Of a stretch of DNA of 64,000 bases, positions 1,123 to 52,078 are shown in pieces (the stretch's first letter is position 1; each line of letters opens with the position of its first letter). A program made the translations under genes and the position numbers. The stretch is from Nitrosopumilaceae archaeon (GTDB lineage: Archaea > Thermoproteota > Nitrososphaeria > Nitrososphaerales > Nitrosopumilaceae). The notes under the pieces were generated by a model. The model saw only the letters and a list, made by a program, of their open reading frames with translations, was not told the DNA's origin and ran no database searches. The DNA lies in contig OZ242365.1 in the NCBI GenBank assembly GCA_965208905.1, positions 576,001-640,000 on the forward strand, written 5' to 3'.

Positions 1123-1393
1123 GTAGACACGAAGTTGCGGTCATGTTTATAGTGTTCGTAACAATGAGGTCGAGAGGACGTAATGTGGTGACACAGGGTG
1201 GCCGCCCGTAACCCGCACGACTAGCCATCGCGTGGTCAGGATCTAGCCATCCAGTAGCTCCTGCCGTTGTCTATGCACACCATCTATCATTCAATTCTGC
1301 TTTGGTATGGCATATGGGCCCGGTCCACCGCATCTCCAGTGGTGGATGCTACAGCCCAAAAACTAGACATATGCCGTCCTAGCCTCTCTAGAT

Positions 1394-2248
1394 GTGTCTG
1401 CGTCAAGGGGCTCAAACTGGAATTTACCATACGGGACTAGACGTCACATCTACGGAGTGGCGTTTTTGTGTATTATTGCCGTTAATGCCTGGTCATACAG
1501 CTCTACGCCGGAGGGGAGTGGCGCGTATTACGGGGATGGTCGGTTAATTTGGACATATGTCACTGCAGGCATACTGGCGTTTATGATTGTAGTTGGCGCT
1601 GTATTTGGCGCATATTACGGGATATGGATGGCTACGGAAAGAGGGCGGACCCGTATTAAGTTGATACTGATGTCCATCATAGCCACCAGCGCATTGGTGC
1701 ATGCCATTGTACAGGGGGTGGGTGGCTGGTGGCCGGAGGAATTTGAAGCCGCTTGGCAGCCCATTATAGCGGCTACGCTGACGTTTATGGTTGCAGCGGG
1801 GGCCGTGTTGGGAGCGCACTTTGAGGCGCCAAATATGTCCAAAAAAAGACGAGTTGGTACGGAGGTCGCGCTGATTGCGATTGTGATCGTCGGCGCCTGC
1901 GTCTTTGCCTCGGAGGCGAGTGGAGGGTTGTTTGATGTCGGTGATGCCCAACCTCTTATTTTTGTAGGTGCATCGTCGGCCATGTCTGCGGGTGGGGCCG
2001 GGTTGGGAGCGCACTATACAGCGCTAGTCAAAAAGATGTTCTGGATACCTGTAGTGCTGACGGCGCTCATATTTGTCGTTGTTTTGGTTCATATTTGGAC
2101 CAAAAGTTTGGATGTCACGGGATGGGATGAGTGTGGCAGATTCATCTGGATGGTGGCTACTGCAACCACACTGGCGATTCCGGTCGTAGCAGGAGCAATG
2201 CTAGCTGGACACTACAGTGTGCGCATGCAGGAGAGTCTCCAAGATTGA
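1394..2248 (+). CDS. multi-pass membrane protein with four internal repeats
   Basis: about 8 hydrophobic segments; recurring GAVFGAYY / GAVLGAHF / GAGLGAHY / GAMLAGHY. Confidence 0.7.
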   Translation: MSASRGSNWNLPYGTRRHIYGVAFLCIIAVNAWSYSSTPEGSGAYYGDGRLIWTYVTAGILAFMIVVGAVFGAYYGIWMATERGRTRIKLILMSIIATSALVHAIVQGVGGWWPEEFEAAWQPIIAATLTFMVAAGAVLGAHFEAPNMSKKRRVGTEVALIAIVIVGACVFASEASGGLFDVGDAQPLIFVGASSAMSAGGAGLGAHYTALVKKMFWIPVVLTALIFVVVLVHIWTKSLDVTGWDECGRFIWMVATATTLAIPVVAGAMLAGHYSVRMQESLQD

Positions 2249-2327
2249 CACGTCGCCAACAGCCATGGTCCTAGCGGACGAGCTCATACACTAGGTTGCC
2301 AGGCAGGTCATTTGCACAACACACAAT

Positions 2328-2770
2328 GTGGCGGTATTCAGGAATAGTTATGACACAAAGTTCGTATTGGGTACCCCACCTCTTGTAGATACCACATCGG
2401 ACAGTTCAGATGATGGTTCAGAGATGCCCACTATTGTGTATGGAGATGCCGCATACGGCTCAAGGGCCAATATTGCTGCATGTGAGCGTGCAGGGGTAGT
2501 TCTAGGTATACTACACAAGATAAACGTGACGCCGCGGAGCAAGGGGTTTGGCGCTGCATGGTGTACATCTGTAAGGGATCAACTGGGAGGCAGTACCAAG
2601 GCTACACGGCTAGACCTGTTAAGCCGAGAAGAGAGAGAATCAGGTGTACTGGAAGGCCAAGATTGGATACCGCAGGAGATGGGTTGTGGAGGGCGTATTT
2701 TCTATATTTAAACGCGTGTTTGGTGAACATATTCTCGCCCTCAAATGGGAGAATATCGTACATGATGATT
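2328..2770 (+). pseudogene. IS5-family transposase remnant (frameshifted)
   Basis: VYGDAAYGSRANI in one frame and YRRRWVVEGVFSIFKRVFGE in another. Confidence 0.75.
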
Positions 2771-3168
2771 ATAAAGTCACAAAGATACAGGACCCGTACC
2801 AGATGTTGCGCAGCATAATAAAAAAGGAGCCCATCATGACGGACACACTCACCTTTAGTTGGGCAGATTGGAAGGATGTTTCTGGTAATATGTCAGGATA
2901 AACCGCGGTAAAGGGTTACATGATAGCGCGATGCAGTTAATGAGGGTTATCGTTAATTTTGGGCGCGCTGGACCTGTGACGCGCGGGGAGCACCACAGAG
3001 GCACACGTAACACATCCGTGGAACCATGCAACTGCGCATAATAGAATAGATGTCTATGCTACCCAAATAGCGCCTTTTAAGTGATGGATATGTGCTACTG
3101 TATTGAGACATAGCGGTACCGCAACTGACAGGAATCTGGCCCAGACAGGCTTAATCGACGAGGTCACC

Positions 3169-32207: not shown

Positions 32208-33800
32208 CTATATCTCTTTTAGCATTTTTATGAGGATACGCCGGTTTGTGTTATTTGTCTTTAGTGATTTTATAAATTTGGCAAACATTTCTTCGGATAC
32301 AGGAATTGTTTGTATATTCTCCAAGTGTCTCATAACTTTGAGGTAATGATCTTTGCCAGTCTTGGATTTTGTAAATCTCTGTATTGTTCTTCCGTATAAT
32401 TCAAAGTATCTGATGGGGGATTTTTTGGCCAGTTTGGGCAGGTATGTAGCATACATATCATGATTATCCAGCGTTTCTAGAGAATCAATGGCTTTTTGGT
32501 GCATACCTTCCTTTACATATATCTGCACAGAGCGCTCGGGCGCCGTAGCCATCAGGTTGTTGTATATTGTATCTAGTGTTAAGCTCCAATCACTGGAGAT
32601 CTTCTTCAACTTGAAAAAGTACTTCCAATCGCCGGTGGCTTCAAACAGGTATCTTAGTATCTGTTGGTATTCGTCTCTGGCGTTGACAAATATTGGTAGG
32701 GCTTCATCAAGTATCTGTGAATCCGTCGGGAATGCGTTAACTACCCTGCGTGCATCTCTGATGGCGCGTTTATCATCTGTACGTTTTAGTATACTCACAA
32801 AGTATCTGCATGTATCTGCATCGTTTGCATAGTATGGTAATAGTGCATCGGCAGCATCATCCCATCGGCCAGCATCTTCGAGTATAAATGCCTGCATACT
32901 TGCTAACTGTTGGGGATCGCCAGTCTTTGGATTTGATTGAGTTAGACTCATCCAGTGTGACATATCCTCCTCTTCGGTGCAGATAGTCTTTAGCGACTCG
33001 ACATAATAAGGCCAGTATGCTCGATATACGGGATTTGTGGCCCTCTCAAAGACATATTTGATATATTGCTTTTTCGTGTCTGAACTCATTTCTGCACGAA
33101 TTACTGAGTCTGTCAGGTTCTCTATTGCTTCAATGGCGCAGTCCTTGTAGTAACCATAATCATCCTGAGCATCCTTTATTGTGGTGATTATGTGTTCGGC
33201 GATGCTACTGTATGCTCTAGCAGCTTCTATATGATCTCCAGCATTGCGCTCTTCGCGAGCAATCTCGAATATATCCTCAAATGTTACATCTTGAGTCTTA
33301 GTATTACTGTATAGGCTATTTAACATCCGGGTATAGTTGCGTGGCAGATGGACATTCTGCAGTCTAAGATGCTCTACAAAGAGGTTGTAAAAATTAGGGT
33401 CTTTTTTTAGTTGTTTAGATACAAAATTCAGTATTTTTTTATGCGATACGTGGGACATAAAGTAGTCTACCGACTCCATTTGTATATCATGTTCCTCTTT
33501 TAATTTGTCCATGTTATCGGCAACGTGCAACATCGCTGCGATAACATGCCAACACCAATAGCCCATCTTACTGTCATGGCAGTCACAAGATCCACCCACC
33601 TCACCGTGTTTATCCCTTAATTCTACGGATATATCCTCACCATAAGTCTCTATTGCTACATTTATCACATCTTTACTGATCCATGCGTCCTTCACTACAT
33701 CTTGATAATACCCATTGGCTTCAGCGTATATTTTTGAGGGGCAACTAGCCTTTATCTGCTTACTGTCTGGAAAGGTCTTCCAGTGTTTATTAACTGTCAT
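32208..33800 (-). CDS. SWIM zinc-finger protein
   Basis: CDC...CWHVIA SWIM motif followed by a helical region. Confidence 0.8.
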   Translation of the reverse strand: MTVNKHWKTFPDSKQIKASCPSKIYAEANGYYQDVVKDAWISKDVINVAIETYGEDISVELRDKHGEVGGSCDCHDSKMGYWCWHVIAAMLHVADNMDKLKEEHDIQMESVDYFMSHVSHKKILNFVSKQLKKDPNFYNLFVEHLRLQNVHLPRNYTRMLNSLYSNTKTQDVTFEDIFEIAREERNAGDHIEAARAYSSIAEHIITTIKDAQDDYGYYKDCAIEAIENLTDSVIRAEMSSDTKKQYIKYVFERATNPVYRAYWPYYVESLKTICTEEEDMSHWMSLTQSNPKTGDPQQLASMQAFILEDAGRWDDAADALLPYYANDADTCRYFVSILKRTDDKRAIRDARRVVNAFPTDSQILDEALPIFVNARDEYQQILRYLFEATGDWKYFFKLKKISSDWSLTLDTIYNNLMATAPERSVQIYVKEGMHQKAIDSLETLDNHDMYATYLPKLAKKSPIRYFELYGRTIQRFTKSKTGKDHYLKVMRHLENIQTIPVSEEMFAKFIKSLKTNNTNRRILIKMLKEI

Positions 33801-34357
33801 GTGTGATATTTTTATGATCTTTCTAAATATTTTTTTCTATATAGTAATATGGCGAATTTTGTACAGTAGGTGCTTTATACATGAATGGTCCAAAATCTAG
33901 TACAGATAGATGTACTGTATGGTTGGCCGCATATACAGGGTGGCTTAAACGCTATGGGTAGACGCATGGTAATGATGAATCGATATAATGCATCGAAAAT
34001 TGTTGAAAATTCAAATTTGATAACAACAATAAAACAGAAACATGGTGAAGGTTGGAGAGAGATTAGCTGGGTACGCGTATGGTGACAAGACATATTGATT
34101 CTCTGGAGAGAACATCGGACATTGATGCGATATTAGACGATATGGAAGAGATGGTACAACGCATCAAAAATTATCCAGTACATCCCAAGTATGATCTATA
34201 ATATTATTGGTTTATAGCTAAAGCTAAATTATATTGTTTTTTAAATATTACTAGACCTAATATAGGTAGATCGCTGGCTGTGGGGATTATATGTCTGAGT
34301 AAACATGTGTGACAGATACTTCAAACCTTTTTAGGGATGAGGTATTTACCATACACA

Positions 34358-34588
34358 ATGAACGAGGCTTATGTGCTACTTAATGTGTCATATAAGAGTC
34401 AGCAAGATGTCATTGAGAGTGCGGAGAAGATTCCAGTGGTAAGATCAGTAAAGTCCGTATATGGGATATGTGATGTTCTAGTCATACTTGAGTCTGATGA
34501 TATGCAAAAGATCAAGGATGCCATTGACAATGATCTTCACGGTATGGATGGCATTACAAATATGACCTCTCTAATATCGGTAAATTGA
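34358..34588 (+). CDS. Lrp/AsnC ligand-binding domain protein
   Basis: AYVLLNV...VYGICDVLVILE...MTSLI. Confidence 0.8.
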   Translation: MNEAYVLLNVSYKSQQDVIESAEKIPVVRSVKSVYGICDVLVILESDDMQKIKDAIDNDLHGMDGITNMTSLISVN

Positions 34589-34594
34589 TCTCTT

Positions 34595-35569
34595 ATGGCG
34601 CGTAAGTATGAGATAGTCATAGTAGGGGCGGGTCCGGCTGGGCTATCGGCGGGAATGTATGTATCTAGACAGAAAGTCTCCTGTATTGTAATATCCAAAG
34701 ATTTGGGAGGTCAGATGAACTTGATTCCAAAACTTGAAAACTATCCCGGGACGATAATGTCTAGTGGGCCCTTACTAGCAAGAACTTTAGAGAACCAATA
34801 CCTGTCGTTTGGAGGGGATATGACATATGATACAGTAAATAATGTGTCTGAAACAGATGAGGGATTAATTATAAAAACCGTTAGGTCCGAGTATGAAGCC
34901 AAGGCTCTCGTGGTGGCTGCAGGTAAGGTACCCAACAACTTAGGGCTTGAGAACGAGTCCACATACCAAAACAAGGGAGTACACTACTGCACAAAGTGTG
35001 ATGCCCCATTCTATCAAGGTAGAACGACTGCGTCAGTGGGTGTGGGAGCATATCTACTTGAATCAGGAATACTATTATCTAGAATGGCAAATCAGGTCTA
35101 TGTCATATATAAGGGGGGACGATTGGGCGGTGATGCGGATCTGATTAAATCGTTAGAAAATAAGGAGAATGTAGAACTTATTCCCAACTCTAGCATAAAG
35201 GCCATAAACGGAAATGGAGCTCTAGAACAGATTACAATATCCGACAAGGGAGGAAATGAAAAAACCATTCAGATAGATGGTCTCTTTATAGAGATGGGCT
35301 CGAAGATTAACTTGGGTTTTGTCAAGCATTTAGTAGAGTTGAATCCCAAAGGTGAGATCAAAGTCAACAACGGCGGAAAGACATCACATCCAGCAATATT
35401 CGCAGCAGGAGATGCAACTGATATACCATATAAGCAGATTGTAGCTGCATGTGGCGATGGTGCCGCTGCAGGCCTCTCGGCCTTCAACTATGTTGAAAAG
35501 TTAAGAGGTAGGCCTGGCGTGCGAGCCGATTGGAAGAAGCAGATAGGGGACACTGTATTTCATTATTAA
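34595..35569 (+). CDS. trxB: thioredoxin reductase
   Basis: GAGPAG, CTKCD redox motif, IFAAGD. Confidence 0.9.
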   Translation: MARKYEIVIVGAGPAGLSAGMYVSRQKVSCIVISKDLGGQMNLIPKLENYPGTIMSSGPLLARTLENQYLSFGGDMTYDTVNNVSETDEGLIIKTVRSEYEAKALVVAAGKVPNNLGLENESTYQNKGVHYCTKCDAPFYQGRTTASVGVGAYLLESGILLSRMANQVYVIYKGGRLGGDADLIKSLENKENVELIPNSSIKAINGNGALEQITISDKGGNEKTIQIDGLFIEMGSKINLGFVKHLVELNPKGEIKVNNGGKTSHPAIFAAGDATDIPYKQIVAACGDGAAAGLSAFNYVEKLRGRPGVRADWKKQIGDTVFHY

Positions 35570-37017: not shown

Positions 37018-38490
37018 CTATACGGCAGTCACTCTGGACAAAGACAAGTACGGTTCATACTGCAAGCACGGGGGTTCCCGCATCCACAATACATCACACG
37101 TCACTCCAGAGGACGACGGTGCATGATACATCTCGTTCCCCGGTCTGTGCTTGACGTTTCTCAGGGGAGCTAATGCGAGAACCCTCCACGTCCAGACACC
37201 CCTTGTACAATGGGTGTTGCCGGTATGGTCCGGCAAGTTTCGTAAGTTTAGTTGGCCATGCCTAACCCCCAGGCCGAGTTTCTTCAGCCCCGCATCCTCT
37301 ATGTTTGAGCCTACATTACAGTCGGCATGATACGTGTGGCCACATTTTTTACACAAGAACTTTCTACCATCCCGGTTATCCTTATGTGTATAACCGCACG
37401 AGTAGCACCGTTGGCTCGTATACGCTGCCGCAACCCAAATTATCTCGCCAGCCAACTTGTACGCCAACAGTAATGCCAACAGCCCCCAGCACTGCTCCAG
37501 GATGGCCTTATTGAGACCAGATTTCTGCGCAACGTTTTTGCCGGGTTTTTCTTTGGTACCTTTGGCAGATTTTGCCATGTTTTGTGTAGGAAGTTTCTCA
37601 AAGGCTGCATGTGTGGTGCTGTTCGATATAACGCGCGATATTTTATGCGCGGTGGTCTTTCGAATGTTTGCAGCTTTGCGTTTGTTCTTGGCTGCACGTT
37701 TGCTGGCTTTGGCCCACCGTCGAGAACCAGGTTTACGATTCGCATAGTCGGGTTTATGCCTGCGTGACGCTATCTTTTGTGCCTTAGAGGCTGTTTTTTC
37801 GGCGTTGTTTATGCGGCGTGCCACCTTTTCGGGTATTATTATTACACAGTCAGGTGTGGCCACATTACCAACATTCTGGTCTATACCAATAACAGTCGGT
37901 TCCGTCACGGTTGGCTTCTCATCGGGTATATCACAGGATATGGTAATCCTCCACCCGCCATCCGGTAGTTGAAACAGTTGGGCCGTCTTGTATCGGTAAT
38001 TCAAGACGGGAAACTCCCGCGACAGTTTAGCCTCGCCCATCTTGGCTATCTTGATTGTACGTGTATCGGTGAAGCGCGCTTGGCCGACGGTACCATCATG
38101 TGTTATCGTCAACGGGATGGAGATGTGACCTCCATATTTCTTAAAGTGCGGTTCACCAAACTCTGCCTTGGGTTTGATGTTGACGGCCTTCAGCTTCTCT
38201 GTTTCCACATATTGGTCATAATGCCTGCCCAAGTCATGTAATATTTGGCGCGTCACCCCGGATATGGATTGACGCATCCAACGCGGACCCGAATGGTTGC
38301 GCAAGTCCGTATACCACGCGTTTATCCTACCACGCGTAGTGTTGACCCTCCCAGCTCGACGGTACTCCTCCTTGAAGGTTTCCAATAGTTTGTTATGCAC
38401 GTACCTGTCCATGCCGGCCTGTCTGGCCAACATCTCCTTCTTGAACCCTTTACGGAATCCAACGCCGAATGTGTATGTGCGTAGTACCAT
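37018..38490 (-). CDS. tnpB: TnpB RNA-guided endonuclease
   Basis: RuvC D (GIDQN), E (FEKL) and D (HADCN); CYSC/CKKC zinc finger; ORF reads through the element end. Confidence 0.92.
37052..37250 (-). ncRNA. putative omegaRNA/reRNA scaffold
   Basis: overlaps the tnpB 3' end; stems ACACCC/GGGTGT and GACGT...ACGTC; boundaries approximate. Confidence 0.5.
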
Positions 38491-38511
38491 TAGCGTACAG
38501 TACGGTTTACA

Positions 38512-38522
38512 TGTTTAAAAAG
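38512..38522 (-). promoter_or_regulatory. TATA box of the tnpB promoter
   Basis: TTTTTAAA about 25-30 nt upstream of the ATG, inside the element. Confidence 0.5.
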
Positions 38523-38609
38523 ATAGTTGAGGTGTGATATATGGCACCCGTCCTTACGGGAGGAACCACAAGTACCAATAGATAAATTTGTCTATGTAGT
38601 AAATTATTT

Positions 38610-46751: not shown

Positions 46752-50711
<3,960 letters not shown>

Positions 50712-50858
50712 CTCAATTATGCTGTATAAAGGATCTAATTAAGCGATACAGTTACAAAGCATGTTGAATTACATAGTTAGAACAAAATATGCCACCCTTC
50801 AGATCTGGAAGTTTTACTGTTATAGTTTTGAGTAGTGTCAGAATCATTCACCCTCATG

Positions 50859-51354
50859 GGTTCCTCCCGCAAAGTCGGGTGATTACACCCCCGCCATGCG
50901 GGATAGCCTGTCAGCCCAGTTGCTCCAGCAACCCTGTATGAGTGGTGTGGGATCGAGGATTACGTCCACACCACGACGGACTTCGCCCAGACTGGCCGAA
51001 ACCTGACGACCATATCGGGATACGGCACTTGTTCGCCGTATATTCTCCACTGCATTGACGTCGCGATCTACGCCAACCGTATGGCAGCGGGTGCAGTCTT
51101 TTTTATGATAAGTTCCAGTTAGTGGGGTTCTACATACAGCGCATAGCTTGGATGTGTTGTGTGGACGCATATGTAATGCCTCCACTCCCAAAAACCGGGA
51201 CTTTTCATAAATTAAATCCGATGCCTTTCGCATCATGGCAGAATGTAACCTGCGACGCATACTGCGTCCAAACTTCCCATTCTTCTGCCAATTGTATGAT
51301 ATGTGGGTTAAATCCTCCAACATAACCAAGCACCCGGACTGTGCGGGAGGAACT
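50859..51354 (-). mobile_element. 496-bp TIR element with an 8-bp TSD carrying the 3' half of a second tnpB
   Basis: CCCTCATG at 50851-50858 and 51355-51362; TIRs GGTTCCTCCCGCAAAGTCGGGTG and rc AGTTCCTCCCGCACAGTCCGGGTG; LEDL, TSKLCAVC, CTRC, DRDVNAVENI. Confidence 0.88.
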
Positions 51355-51574
51355 CCCTCATGTAACACATATTTGATAGGGTATAGCCCATATAGCAACA
51401 CAGCAGTGCTTTCGCATATGCGGAACAGACAACATAATCTCGTTTAACAGTGTATACAAACTTGGATTTGTCTGCAAGATCCCAACAATATGGTTCATTT
51501 TTAGATGTGTTTACATCAACGCATAAAACCCGCCATACGGTATGTTTAAAGGATTCATTAAATTCAAAGACTTT

Positions 51575-51649
51575 GGGTTCATAGTCCAGCTCGGTTATGA
51601 CGTCGCCCTTACACGGCGAAGATCCGGGGTTCAAATCCCCGTGAACCCA
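51575..51649 (+). tRNA. tRNA-Val(TAC)
   Basis: TCGCC CT TAC AC GGCGA anticodon arm; GGTTCAAATCC T arm. Confidence 0.95.
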
Positions 51650-52078
51650 CTCTTATGAGGTTCTTCCCACAAAGTGTCTACACTTTATGAGATAATCTGC
51701 CGGCCCTCCAGATAGGAGTGAGATCGTATGACATTGCGACAGACTTTTACCAAACTAGCCGAAACCTTGCAGTCTGCGCAAAATCTTAGCCACTTTACCC
51801 TTCCTTGCATCTTTGATTGACTTTGTATGATCATGTTGTCAATACTGATCCATTTGATTCTTTACTGCGTCTCTGTTTTTCTGCTTTTTTGAGTTTGTTG
51901 TGTCTGCATCTGAGTTTGCTGAATAGTTTGTGACCGCCATTTTCAATCTTCTGTTCCCCACTATGCGCCTCCTCTTTCTTGTGTGTAACCTCCTTTTAGT
52001 ACAGAATTCATCATTAAACTTGTGAAGAGGAACCTCGCATCGTAAAACCATTATTATTTGAGATGTATCAGTATAGTT

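Follow-up and report, generated by a model that had tools for sequence, protein, structure and literature searches.

A probable deletion relic of a TnpB-only element with IS6-like ends in a Nitrosopumilaceae archaeon, and candidate target-adjacent motifs beside related insertions

The window (the whole stretch of 64,000 nt analyzed here) covers positions 576,001 to 640,000 of contig OZ242365.1 from a Nitrosopumilaceae archaeon (GCA_965208905.1), whose genome consists of 2,214,775 bases in one contig and is 99.57% complete. At window positions 50859 to 51354 it contains a 496-bp element flanked by an 8-bp target-site duplication. Comparison with 12 full copies identifies this element as an internal-deletion derivative of a family of transposable elements (family A) that carry tnpB, here read in the sense of the minus strand. 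The window element is very likely a decayed, nonautonomous, single-copy relic of a 1.6-kb TnpB-only element. As a more tentative proposal, several unrelated tnpB lineages in sponge-associated ammonia-oxidizing archaea may each have taken to hitchhiking, as tnpB-only elements, on DDE transposon ends, which are IS6-like in families A and B and IS1595-like in two others. The surviving copies would lie one duplication length downstream of a lineage-specific target-adjacent motif (TAM), and either TnpB homing or TAM-directed insertion would decide which of them persist.

Ends, duplication, and coding remnant of the window element

The element is bounded by two copies of the 8-mer CCCTCATG, both read directly, at 50851 to 50858 beside the right end (3' of tnpB) and at 51355 to 51362 beside the left end. 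This 8-mer alone is not rare, with 3 occurrences in the window against 2.42 expected, and its nonrandomness lies in the abutment of two copies on both termini rather than in rarity. An earlier interpretation made from the letters of the window (the sequence-only reading) had reported the duplication on either side, which we confirm, and had argued that perfect 8-mers at the boundaries make coincidence very unlikely; the argument from their placement stands, but the 8-mer itself is no rarity in the window.

The right end carries an intact IS6-type terminal inverted repeat (TIR), GGTTCCTCCCGCAAAGTCGGGTG, at 50859 to 50881 on the plus strand, which matches the family consensus exactly and holds a short internal palindrome, CCCG..CGGG. 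When up to three mismatches were allowed, this 23-mer was found at two sites in the window, namely, at 50859 (plus strand, no mismatches) and at 38545 to 38567 (minus strand, three mismatches), while 100 shuffles of the window gave an expectation of none. The 12-nt core of the end, with at most one mismatch, occurs three times against 0.22 expected. The second 23-mer site is an end of what had been called the 37-kb element, and the 20/23 identity claimed for it is correct.

The left terminus is chimeric. Its sequence at 51331 to 51354 (plus strand) reads CACCCGGACTGTGCGGGAGGAACT, and comparison with internal and terminal sequences of the 12 full copies divides it into end-like tnpB coding sequence (51331 to 51346, including a crossover in TGCGG at 51342 to 51346) and the true tip of the element (51347 to 51354), the last base of which is T where the family has C. 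The right-hand "TIR" of the sequence-only reading is therefore mostly end-like coding sequence plus eight true terminal bases, because the joint fell between imperfect repeats. That reading had joined the TIR directly to the RuvC-II region of tnpB, and the translated frame does contain LEDL, but that TIR includes only the last 8 bp of a true end.

About 150 C-terminal codons of the family A protein (TnpB-A) remain at 50886 to 51346 on the minus strand, as judged by translation, by a PF07282 match, and by alignment to a full-length parent copy (L003). The minus-strand frame at 50883 to 51401 translates to CLVMLEDL..RRRLHSAMMRK..CAVCRT..CTRCH..DRDVNAVENI with a CxxC...CxxC finger and matches the Pfam family Cas12f1-like_TNB (PF07282; E value, 1.3e-7). 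Of the protein, the fragment thus keeps the RuvC-II glutamate (LEDL), the zinc finger, and RuvC-III (DRDVNA), and its C-terminal tail shares sequence with the RNA region described below. BLASTP finds no similarity between the fragment and the TnpB at 37018 to 38490 (best E value, 11), in agreement with the earlier impression that the two are clearly unlike, and the translation together with a GTGGTGTGG/CCACACCAC stem bears out the claim that the zinc finger and a structured 3' region were kept. The description of the remnant as half of a TnpB was too generous, since the retained piece amounts to ~30% of the parent (488 of 1616 bp). The remaining features reported by the sequence-only reading were all found in place.

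Deletion joint and origin of the short form

All 12 full copies of family A read ..ACCAAGCACCCGGAYTGTGCGG|CCCACTG.. in the coding region and ..CACCCGACTTTGCGG|GAGGAACC at the true left end, and the window element reads ..ACCAAGCACCCGGACTGTGCGG|GAGGAACT across its joint. The missing ~1120 bp lie between two imperfect direct repeats, one being an end look-alike of 16 nt inside tnpB, in the stretch CACCCGGAYTGTGCGG that codes for AQSGCLV, and the other being CACCCGACTTTGCGG at the true left end; comparison with the 12 full copies places the crossover in the TGCGG given above. The likeliest history is that a ~1615-bp family A element inserted at CCCTCATG, generating the 8-bp duplication, and later lost ~1120 bp by recombination or slippage between CACCCGGAYTGTGCGG and CACCCGACTTTGCGG, with the crossover in TGCGG. 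Such a deletion would leave, beside 8 bp of the left tip, only the right end with the omegaRNA module and the final ~150 codons of tnpB. One study describes tnpB elements of Haloquadratum that lost their core between repeats similar to the terminal palindrome (PMC3119063). We also considered that the transposase had taken the internal look-alike for an end, but the true 8-bp tip follows the look-alike, and this origin was rejected.

The window element is the sole copy with this joint in the genome. It differs by at least 5% from every other family A copy and is therefore old. In a second, independent family A derivative (genome positions 999540 to 1000124), a different repeat of 9 nt, CTTCTGCCA, marks the joint; this form is likewise single-copy, as is the one deletion derivative of family B. 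The comparative evidence at this position limits the proposed history: no full copy or empty site was found here in any strain or relative, the search for related loci returned one relative only, and the orthologous locus of G083 contains 540 bp of unrelated sequence, which is neither an empty site nor a full copy. Because no relative with a full copy or an empty site was found, deletion in situ and transposition of the short form are indistinguishable by this route. Deletion in situ, keeping the original duplication, explains the short form equally well as or better than transposition as a miniature inverted-repeat transposable element (MITE), and the window element itself is an ordinary decay product.

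Parent family A

In a genome-wide search with the 496 bp, about a dozen places matched positions 1 to 488 at 91 to 95% identity, each having a second inverted end ~1.1 kb further on. With one full copy as the BLAST query (L003, positions 1501 to 3116, 1616 bp), the whole genome yielded 12 full-length copies of ~1615 bp that are 89 to 99.8% mutually identical, so a full-length parent such as the sequence-only reading had supposed does exist. The search also yielded a left-truncated copy, several fragments, and the two internal-deletion forms. Between its IS6-type inverted ends, a family A element carries nothing but tnpB. Its gene is a frame of ~505 to 522 aa with GVDINEKN, MLEDL, a CxxC..CxxC zinc finger, and DRDVNA, and the acidic residues of RuvC-I, -II, and -III and the zinc finger stand in the usual order and are invariant across seven aligned homologues. 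Open frames of at least 505 aa were found in 7 of the 12 full copies.

Full-length TnpB-A scores 28.8 bits against Pfam PF07282 (cutoff, 26.3) and 30.7 bits (E value, 1.9e-7) against the NCBIfam model guided_TnpB, the latter below the cutoff of 100. A sequence search of the PDB gave nothing significant. The AlphaFold model of the protein is of low confidence (pLDDT, 53.6); the top Foldseek matches of this model are all Cas12f, TnpB, or Fanzor proteins, with E values down to 4.8e-12 and TM-scores of 0.24 to 0.31. Outside this genus, family A occurs in a single neighboring genus; it is present in 10 of the 151 genomes searched, a count that includes this genome and one weak match in the unpublished genome G077, on which nothing rests. 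With its ~520 aa, TnpB-A is, to judge from its sequence, a highly divergent TnpB; its guide-RNA scaffold is conserved, and the family may interest those who mine genomes for compact nucleases.

The tnpB frames of both family A (L003, positions 1376 to 3082) and family B (window 37018 to 38490) stay open through the whole RNA scaffold, and in some copies they extend past the end into flanking DNA; annotated TnpB lengths (up to 568 aa) therefore overstate the protein. The left-truncated family A copy is abutted by a DNA methyltransferase gene that has five copies in the genome (159986 to 163066), and two IS6-like genes lie just upstream of that locus (156690 to 159492).

Shared ends: family B and the IS6-like owner

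The family B TnpB element of the window lies on the minus strand at 37052 to 38567, between copies of its own duplication, ACAAGTAC, at 37044 to 37051 and 38568 to 38575. This is the former 37-kb element, which does belong to the same family of ends but whose boundaries had to be corrected to these positions. Family B comprises eight full copies, one partial copy, and the deletion form and encodes a typical TnpB (147.1 bits against guided_TnpB; E value, 8.3e-43). Full-length A and B proteins show no BLASTP-detectable similarity (best E value, 0.43), and their guided_TnpB scores are far apart (30.7 versus 147.1 bits). Both families nevertheless share inverted ends with the pattern GGTTCC..GCAA[AG]G.CGGGTG, differing at a few inner positions (AAAGTC in A versus AAGGAC in B), and 8-bp duplications. 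The proposal that one TIR system carries several tnpB lineages is thereby upheld, and the possibility that would undo it, A and B being one lineage, is contradicted by the comparison of the two proteins.

Among the 14 family A copies with two ends, 11 have matching flanking repeats that vary from copy to copy (8 bp, but 9 bp once and one with a mismatch), and 3 have unmatched flanks. In family B, 7 of 10 rows have the duplication (three of them at 7 of 8 positions), and one further row is a composite with a neighboring element under a shared outer repeat. At genome positions 924780 to 927837, a family B element lies 8 bp from a pseudogenized IS6-like element (C), and TTAAACTC flanks the pair on the outside, an arrangement that would fit movement as a composite or an exchange of flanks.

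The TnpB TNB domain is matched 77 times in the 2.2-Mb genome, with 74 of the matches above the cutoff, yet no Y1 or serine TnpA turned up. Profile searches of the genome gave no match for Y1 transposases (PF01797; the positive control was found in 6 of 14 known genomes) and none for serine recombinases (also run with positive controls). The end pattern itself occurs genus-wide, in 9 of 10 genomes, with 55 matches in this genome versus 4 for a reversed control. In one congener (G125), elements of 1442 to 1455 bp within these ends encode an open transposase frame of 388 to 396 aa; for example, the locus L077 (positions 1299 to 2740) has an intact transposase of 388 aa (1495 to 2661, minus strand) and a perfect duplication, CCAATTTG. 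Perfect 8-bp duplications flank 9 of the 13 autonomous IS6-like loci examined in G125, G113, and G043. The G125 transposase (L077) scores 31.8 bits against Pfam DDE_Tnp_IS240 (cutoff, 27), and its best NCBIfam match is IS6, at 77.1 bits, which is below the equivalog cutoff of 125 and is why we use the label "IS6-like." The cognate copy in this genome (926302 to 927837, 1536 bp) has the same ends but is a pseudogene with frameshifts and stops. An IS6-like DDE transposase with a zinc finger is the owner of the A and B ends. An IS6 review gives the ends of this family as 15 to 20 bp long, tipped by GG and bearing a caaa motif, reports repeats of 8 bp flanking IS26, and has movement proceed through cointegrates (PMC7986276); the ends GGTTCC..GCAAAG.. 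fit these features in their GG tips, caaa motif, and 8-bp duplications. At the family level, the IS6-like transposase, supplied in trans, would move the A and B elements by copy-in transposition, to which the three family A copies with unmatched flanks and the outer duplication shared by the composite of B and C point indirectly.

Three other candidate owners were rejected. One end abuts a truncated ISH3-like copy at genome position 1578215, but we regard this junction as accidental because intact copies and those of relatives carry other ends (CAGCTAACCC..). The IS1595-like transposase has its own ends, GGGAATTATATAC, and owns other TnpB families, and the 13 other IS6-like genes of this genome have ends such as GGTTCTGGGAAATCA.. 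and GGTGCATCTTGG... Two further TnpB families (17 and 9 open reading frame copies) have GGGAATTATATAC inverted ends and 8-bp duplications at genome positions 33496 to 34967 and 415597 to 417068, at ~20 more sites, and in the window at ~58889. The same GGGAATTATATAC ends also flank IS1595-family transposase genes, one such element carrying a DNA methyltransferase (1043578 to 1046414). At least one TnpB family (14 open reading frame copies, e.g., 394396 to 395718) lacks inverted ends and resembles classical IS1341. Two further loci inspected, L065 and L066, proved to be IS630 insertions nested in other elements.

A one-sided motif beside the insertions

In family A, TA directly follows the left-end duplication (WTA in the tnpB sense) in all 14 copies that have a left end, including 3 without a matching duplication, a result with a chance of 7e-17 at the genomic TA frequency of 0.070. 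In the window element the motif is at 51363 to 51365 (TAA on the plus strand, TTA in the minus-strand tnpB sense), directly 5' of the left-end duplication. Family A relatives in G083, G100, and G043 have TA in five of the six cases examined. Family B has CAA (TTG in the tnpB sense) in six of nine evaluable copies, the rest having TAA twice and AAA once (P = 5e-9), and the family B loci of G083 have TTG in all three cases where an end was found. The autonomous IS6-like copies of G125 have TA on only 1 of 18 flank sides (Fisher P = 3e-8 against family A) and TTG on 2 of 18.

This position is where a TAM must sit if the guide consists of the duplication plus the flank beyond the right end. By the known layout of TnpB and omegaRNA, a transcript running out of the right end of the window element would have its guide at 50839 to 50858 on the minus strand. 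From these flanks we infer that the set of insertions that persist may be shaped by TnpB cutting alleles that lack the element, or by insertion linked to the TAM. TnpB with its omegaRNA (the scaffold ending in the right end, the guide being duplication plus flank) would cut an unoccupied allele that bears the TAM (WTA for family A, TTG for family B) directly 5' of the guide-matching sequence; recombination would then copy the element in, so that TAM-adjacent insertions would be retained. If this is true, the equation of target motif and TAM known for TnpA and TnpB extends to duplication-making transposons, and relics such as the window element continue to code for a guide that targets the empty site they once filled. 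WTA(Y) and TTG are candidate TAMs for families A and B. The motif, one-sided and specific to the lineage, stands beside TnpB-bearing copies and is missing beside autonomous ones, which yields a testable prediction of TnpB-driven retention in a duplication-making transposon.

A different explanation of the same motifs is target preference, be it that of two transposases that differ a little from each other or that of insertion assisted by TnpB, with no TAM involved. Two transposase variants are conceivable, given that the A and B ends differ at inner positions (AAAGTC versus AAGGAC), and in the available portion of one source the target motifs of IS200/IS605 TnpA equal the TAMs of TnpB (PMC13565253). 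We nevertheless consider this explanation unlikely. The autonomous G125 copies, with either end variant, lack the motif (TA on 1/18 sides, TTG on 2/18); the motif is one-sided and oriented with tnpB, which would not be expected from a symmetric DDE complex; and it is kept in family A relatives of G083 and G100 whose ends differ.

Several points tell against our account of the families. The TAM interpretation draws on flanks only. Our end pattern found no end at six of the nine family B loci in G083, and distant relatives of family B have TTG in only two of five cases. Two family A copies are 99.75% identical and have different duplications although the genome has no intact cognate transposase; therefore, some source of transposase acted recently. 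The ends of the 13 other IS6-like genes of this genome are different, and L062 (G113) and L067 (G065), the first longer end-bounded IS6-like loci, have no matching duplication and hold frameshifted IS6-like genes. The low confidence of the TnpB-A structure model belongs among these points as well.

The omegaRNA-like region, transcription, and mobility of the short form

A structured region of seven helices lies at 50907 to 51077 on the minus strand of the window element and was delimited with RNAalifold and covariation. The alignment covered 230 nt beside the right end in 6 copies from this genome and 8 from G043, G083, G100, and G125, where the TnpB-A relatives are 38 to 40% identical in protein sequence. 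RNAalifold predicted 40 pairs, 17 of them with changes on both sides, and 95.3% of the cells were paired, versus 37 to 43% when partners were slid by one to three columns. The GTGGTGTGG/CCACACCAC stem pointed out by the sequence-only reading is helix 6 (~50942 to 50974), in which seven of eight pairs show compensatory changes. The window copy retains all helices, and its single-sequence fold has a z score of -1.79. Covariation shows that the 3' region kept in the element is a genuine structured RNA; this omegaRNA-like scaffold overlaps the C-terminal tail of tnpB. The proposed scan with omegaRNA covariance models drew a blank in Rfam, the models of which found only tRNA-Val and none of which matches the RNA region.

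Five sponge metatranscriptome runs contain small shares of the window, and four of them were compared, as contigs: X1, X2, and X4 from one study and X3 from another. Short contigs cover 50870 to 51062 in X1, 50883 to 51102 in X2, and 50870 to 51038 in X4, and the X3 contig covers 50500 to 50692 only. At 50964 (G>A), at 50970 (A>G), and in a TG insertion after 50882, the contigs over the element agree with other family A copies, so no transcript of this copy itself was seen; across the four runs, no contig spans the joint at 51346/51347, the flanks, or the predicted guide. Depth in X1 was 23.9 over the element versus 2.2 on a neighboring gene, a ratio near the copy number, and DNA carry-over in X1 is conceivable. 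These data are a weak hint that the family A 3' region is present as RNA.

The sequence-only reading had suggested that the short form may act as a guide-RNA-only MITE, that is, as a mobile 496-bp module serving a TnpB-A supplied in trans. In its favor are the perfect 8-bp duplication with recognizable tips at both ends, the complete and conserved omegaRNA-like region and right end, the seven full copies with frames of at least 505 aa that could provide the protein, the RNA-library contigs over the ~200 nt of the family nearest the right end, and the existence in congeners of real MITEs of ~160 bp with these ends. Such a module is nonetheless quite improbable here. The window element is the sole copy with its joint, its left terminus has only eight true bases and ends in T rather than C, the promoter side upstream of tnpB is deleted, the cognate transposase is a pseudogene in this genome, no Rfam model matches, the RNA contigs match other copies in their letters, with none spanning 51346/51347 or the flanks, and a divergence of at least 5% from every other copy marks the element as old. 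Even as a relic, the window copy might supply a guide RNA to TnpB-A made by the seven copies with open frames.

True MITEs of the same end system were seen as ~160-bp elements in G083, G125, G135, and G065 (e.g., G083:C1:1640520-1640682), and this genome has one of 146 bp at 1496677 to 1496822.

Neighboring features

Directly beside the element, at 46752 to 50711 on the minus strand, lies a 1319-aa open reading frame made of long tandem repeats (PEPEPE.. and another unit). On the other side, a tRNA-Val gene identified by an Rfam match (51575 to 51650) directly precedes a second, more decayed family-A-like relic at 51659 to 52036 (minus strand), which matches family A positions 669 to 764 at 74%. 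The tips of this relic are end-like, it lacks a matching duplication, and TA follows after 8 nt on the left-end side.

Comparison with known systems

An IS200/IS605-type origin as an ordinary palindrome-associated relic, with a Y1 TnpA moving the element and with its ends and duplication being subterminal hairpins and a target motif, has next to no plausibility: TnpB is normally a passenger of IS200/IS605 or IS607, the end contains the CCCG..CGGG palindrome, and a conserved short motif lies near the left end, but the ends are true 23- to 26-nt inverted repeats, the 8-bp flanking repeats vary between copies, neither a Y1 nor a serine recombinase was found in the genome, an IS6-like DDE transposase lies between the same ends in congeners, and the published definition already contradicts it, IS200/IS605 and IS607 elements having neither inverted ends nor duplications in the available text of two papers (PMC13565253, PMC3119063). 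The nearest likeness within that group is to the IS1341-type/PATE derivatives of Haloquadratum, which, in the portion of the report available, are also multicopy tnpB-only elements in a genome without a working TnpA and also arose by deletion between end-like short direct repeats that kept a C-terminal remnant and the 3' RNA region (PMC3119063). Unlike the IS1341 type, family A has 23- to 26-nt inverted ends and variable 8-bp duplications, in a genome without Y1.

The likeness to IS6/IS26 lies in the GG tips, the caaa motif, the 8-bp duplications, and the DDE_Tnp_IS240 transposase of the autonomous form, and some copies have unmatched flanks, as expected from cointegrate formation or targeted exchange (both as described in the accessible part of PMC7986276). 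In contrast to IS6/IS26, the transposase has 388 to 396 aa, a CxC..CxxH finger, and an N-terminal zinc-binding domain of the IS1/IS1595 type; a related IS6-like protein of this genome matches Pfam SWIM. The A and B elements also differ in carrying tnpB in place of the transposase, and the same review, in its available text, records one IS6 member only with a passenger gene (PMC7986276).

As in MITEs, the window element is short, lacks transposase coding, and has inverted ends and a duplication. A MITE family, however, consists of many copies of the same short form, and the window form occurs once.

Eukaryotic Fanzor1 is said to occur in transposons with TIRs and target-site duplications. TnpB has been linked to DDE transposases with symmetric ends in the IS630-linked DDE-6 branch (PMC10691335), and DDE-linked TnpB is listed for ISL2, IS630, and IS1031 (PMC13565253), as far as the available text of these papers goes. 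Our elements resemble these systems in placing an RNA-guided nuclease inside a symmetric-ended, duplication-making, DDE-moved transposon. They differ from the DDE-linked TnpB reports, which in their available text have tnpB beside the transposase, in being tnpB-only, with borrowed ends and a proposed dependence on a transposase in trans. No IS6-like or IS1595-like ends around tnpB-only elements were found in the accessible parts of the literature, on which the supplements of PMC10691335 may bear. The system bears on why TnpB is so rarely linked to DDE transposons and on how tnpB-only elements multiply without TnpA, namely, by carrying IS6-like ends or, in other families, IS1595-like ends.

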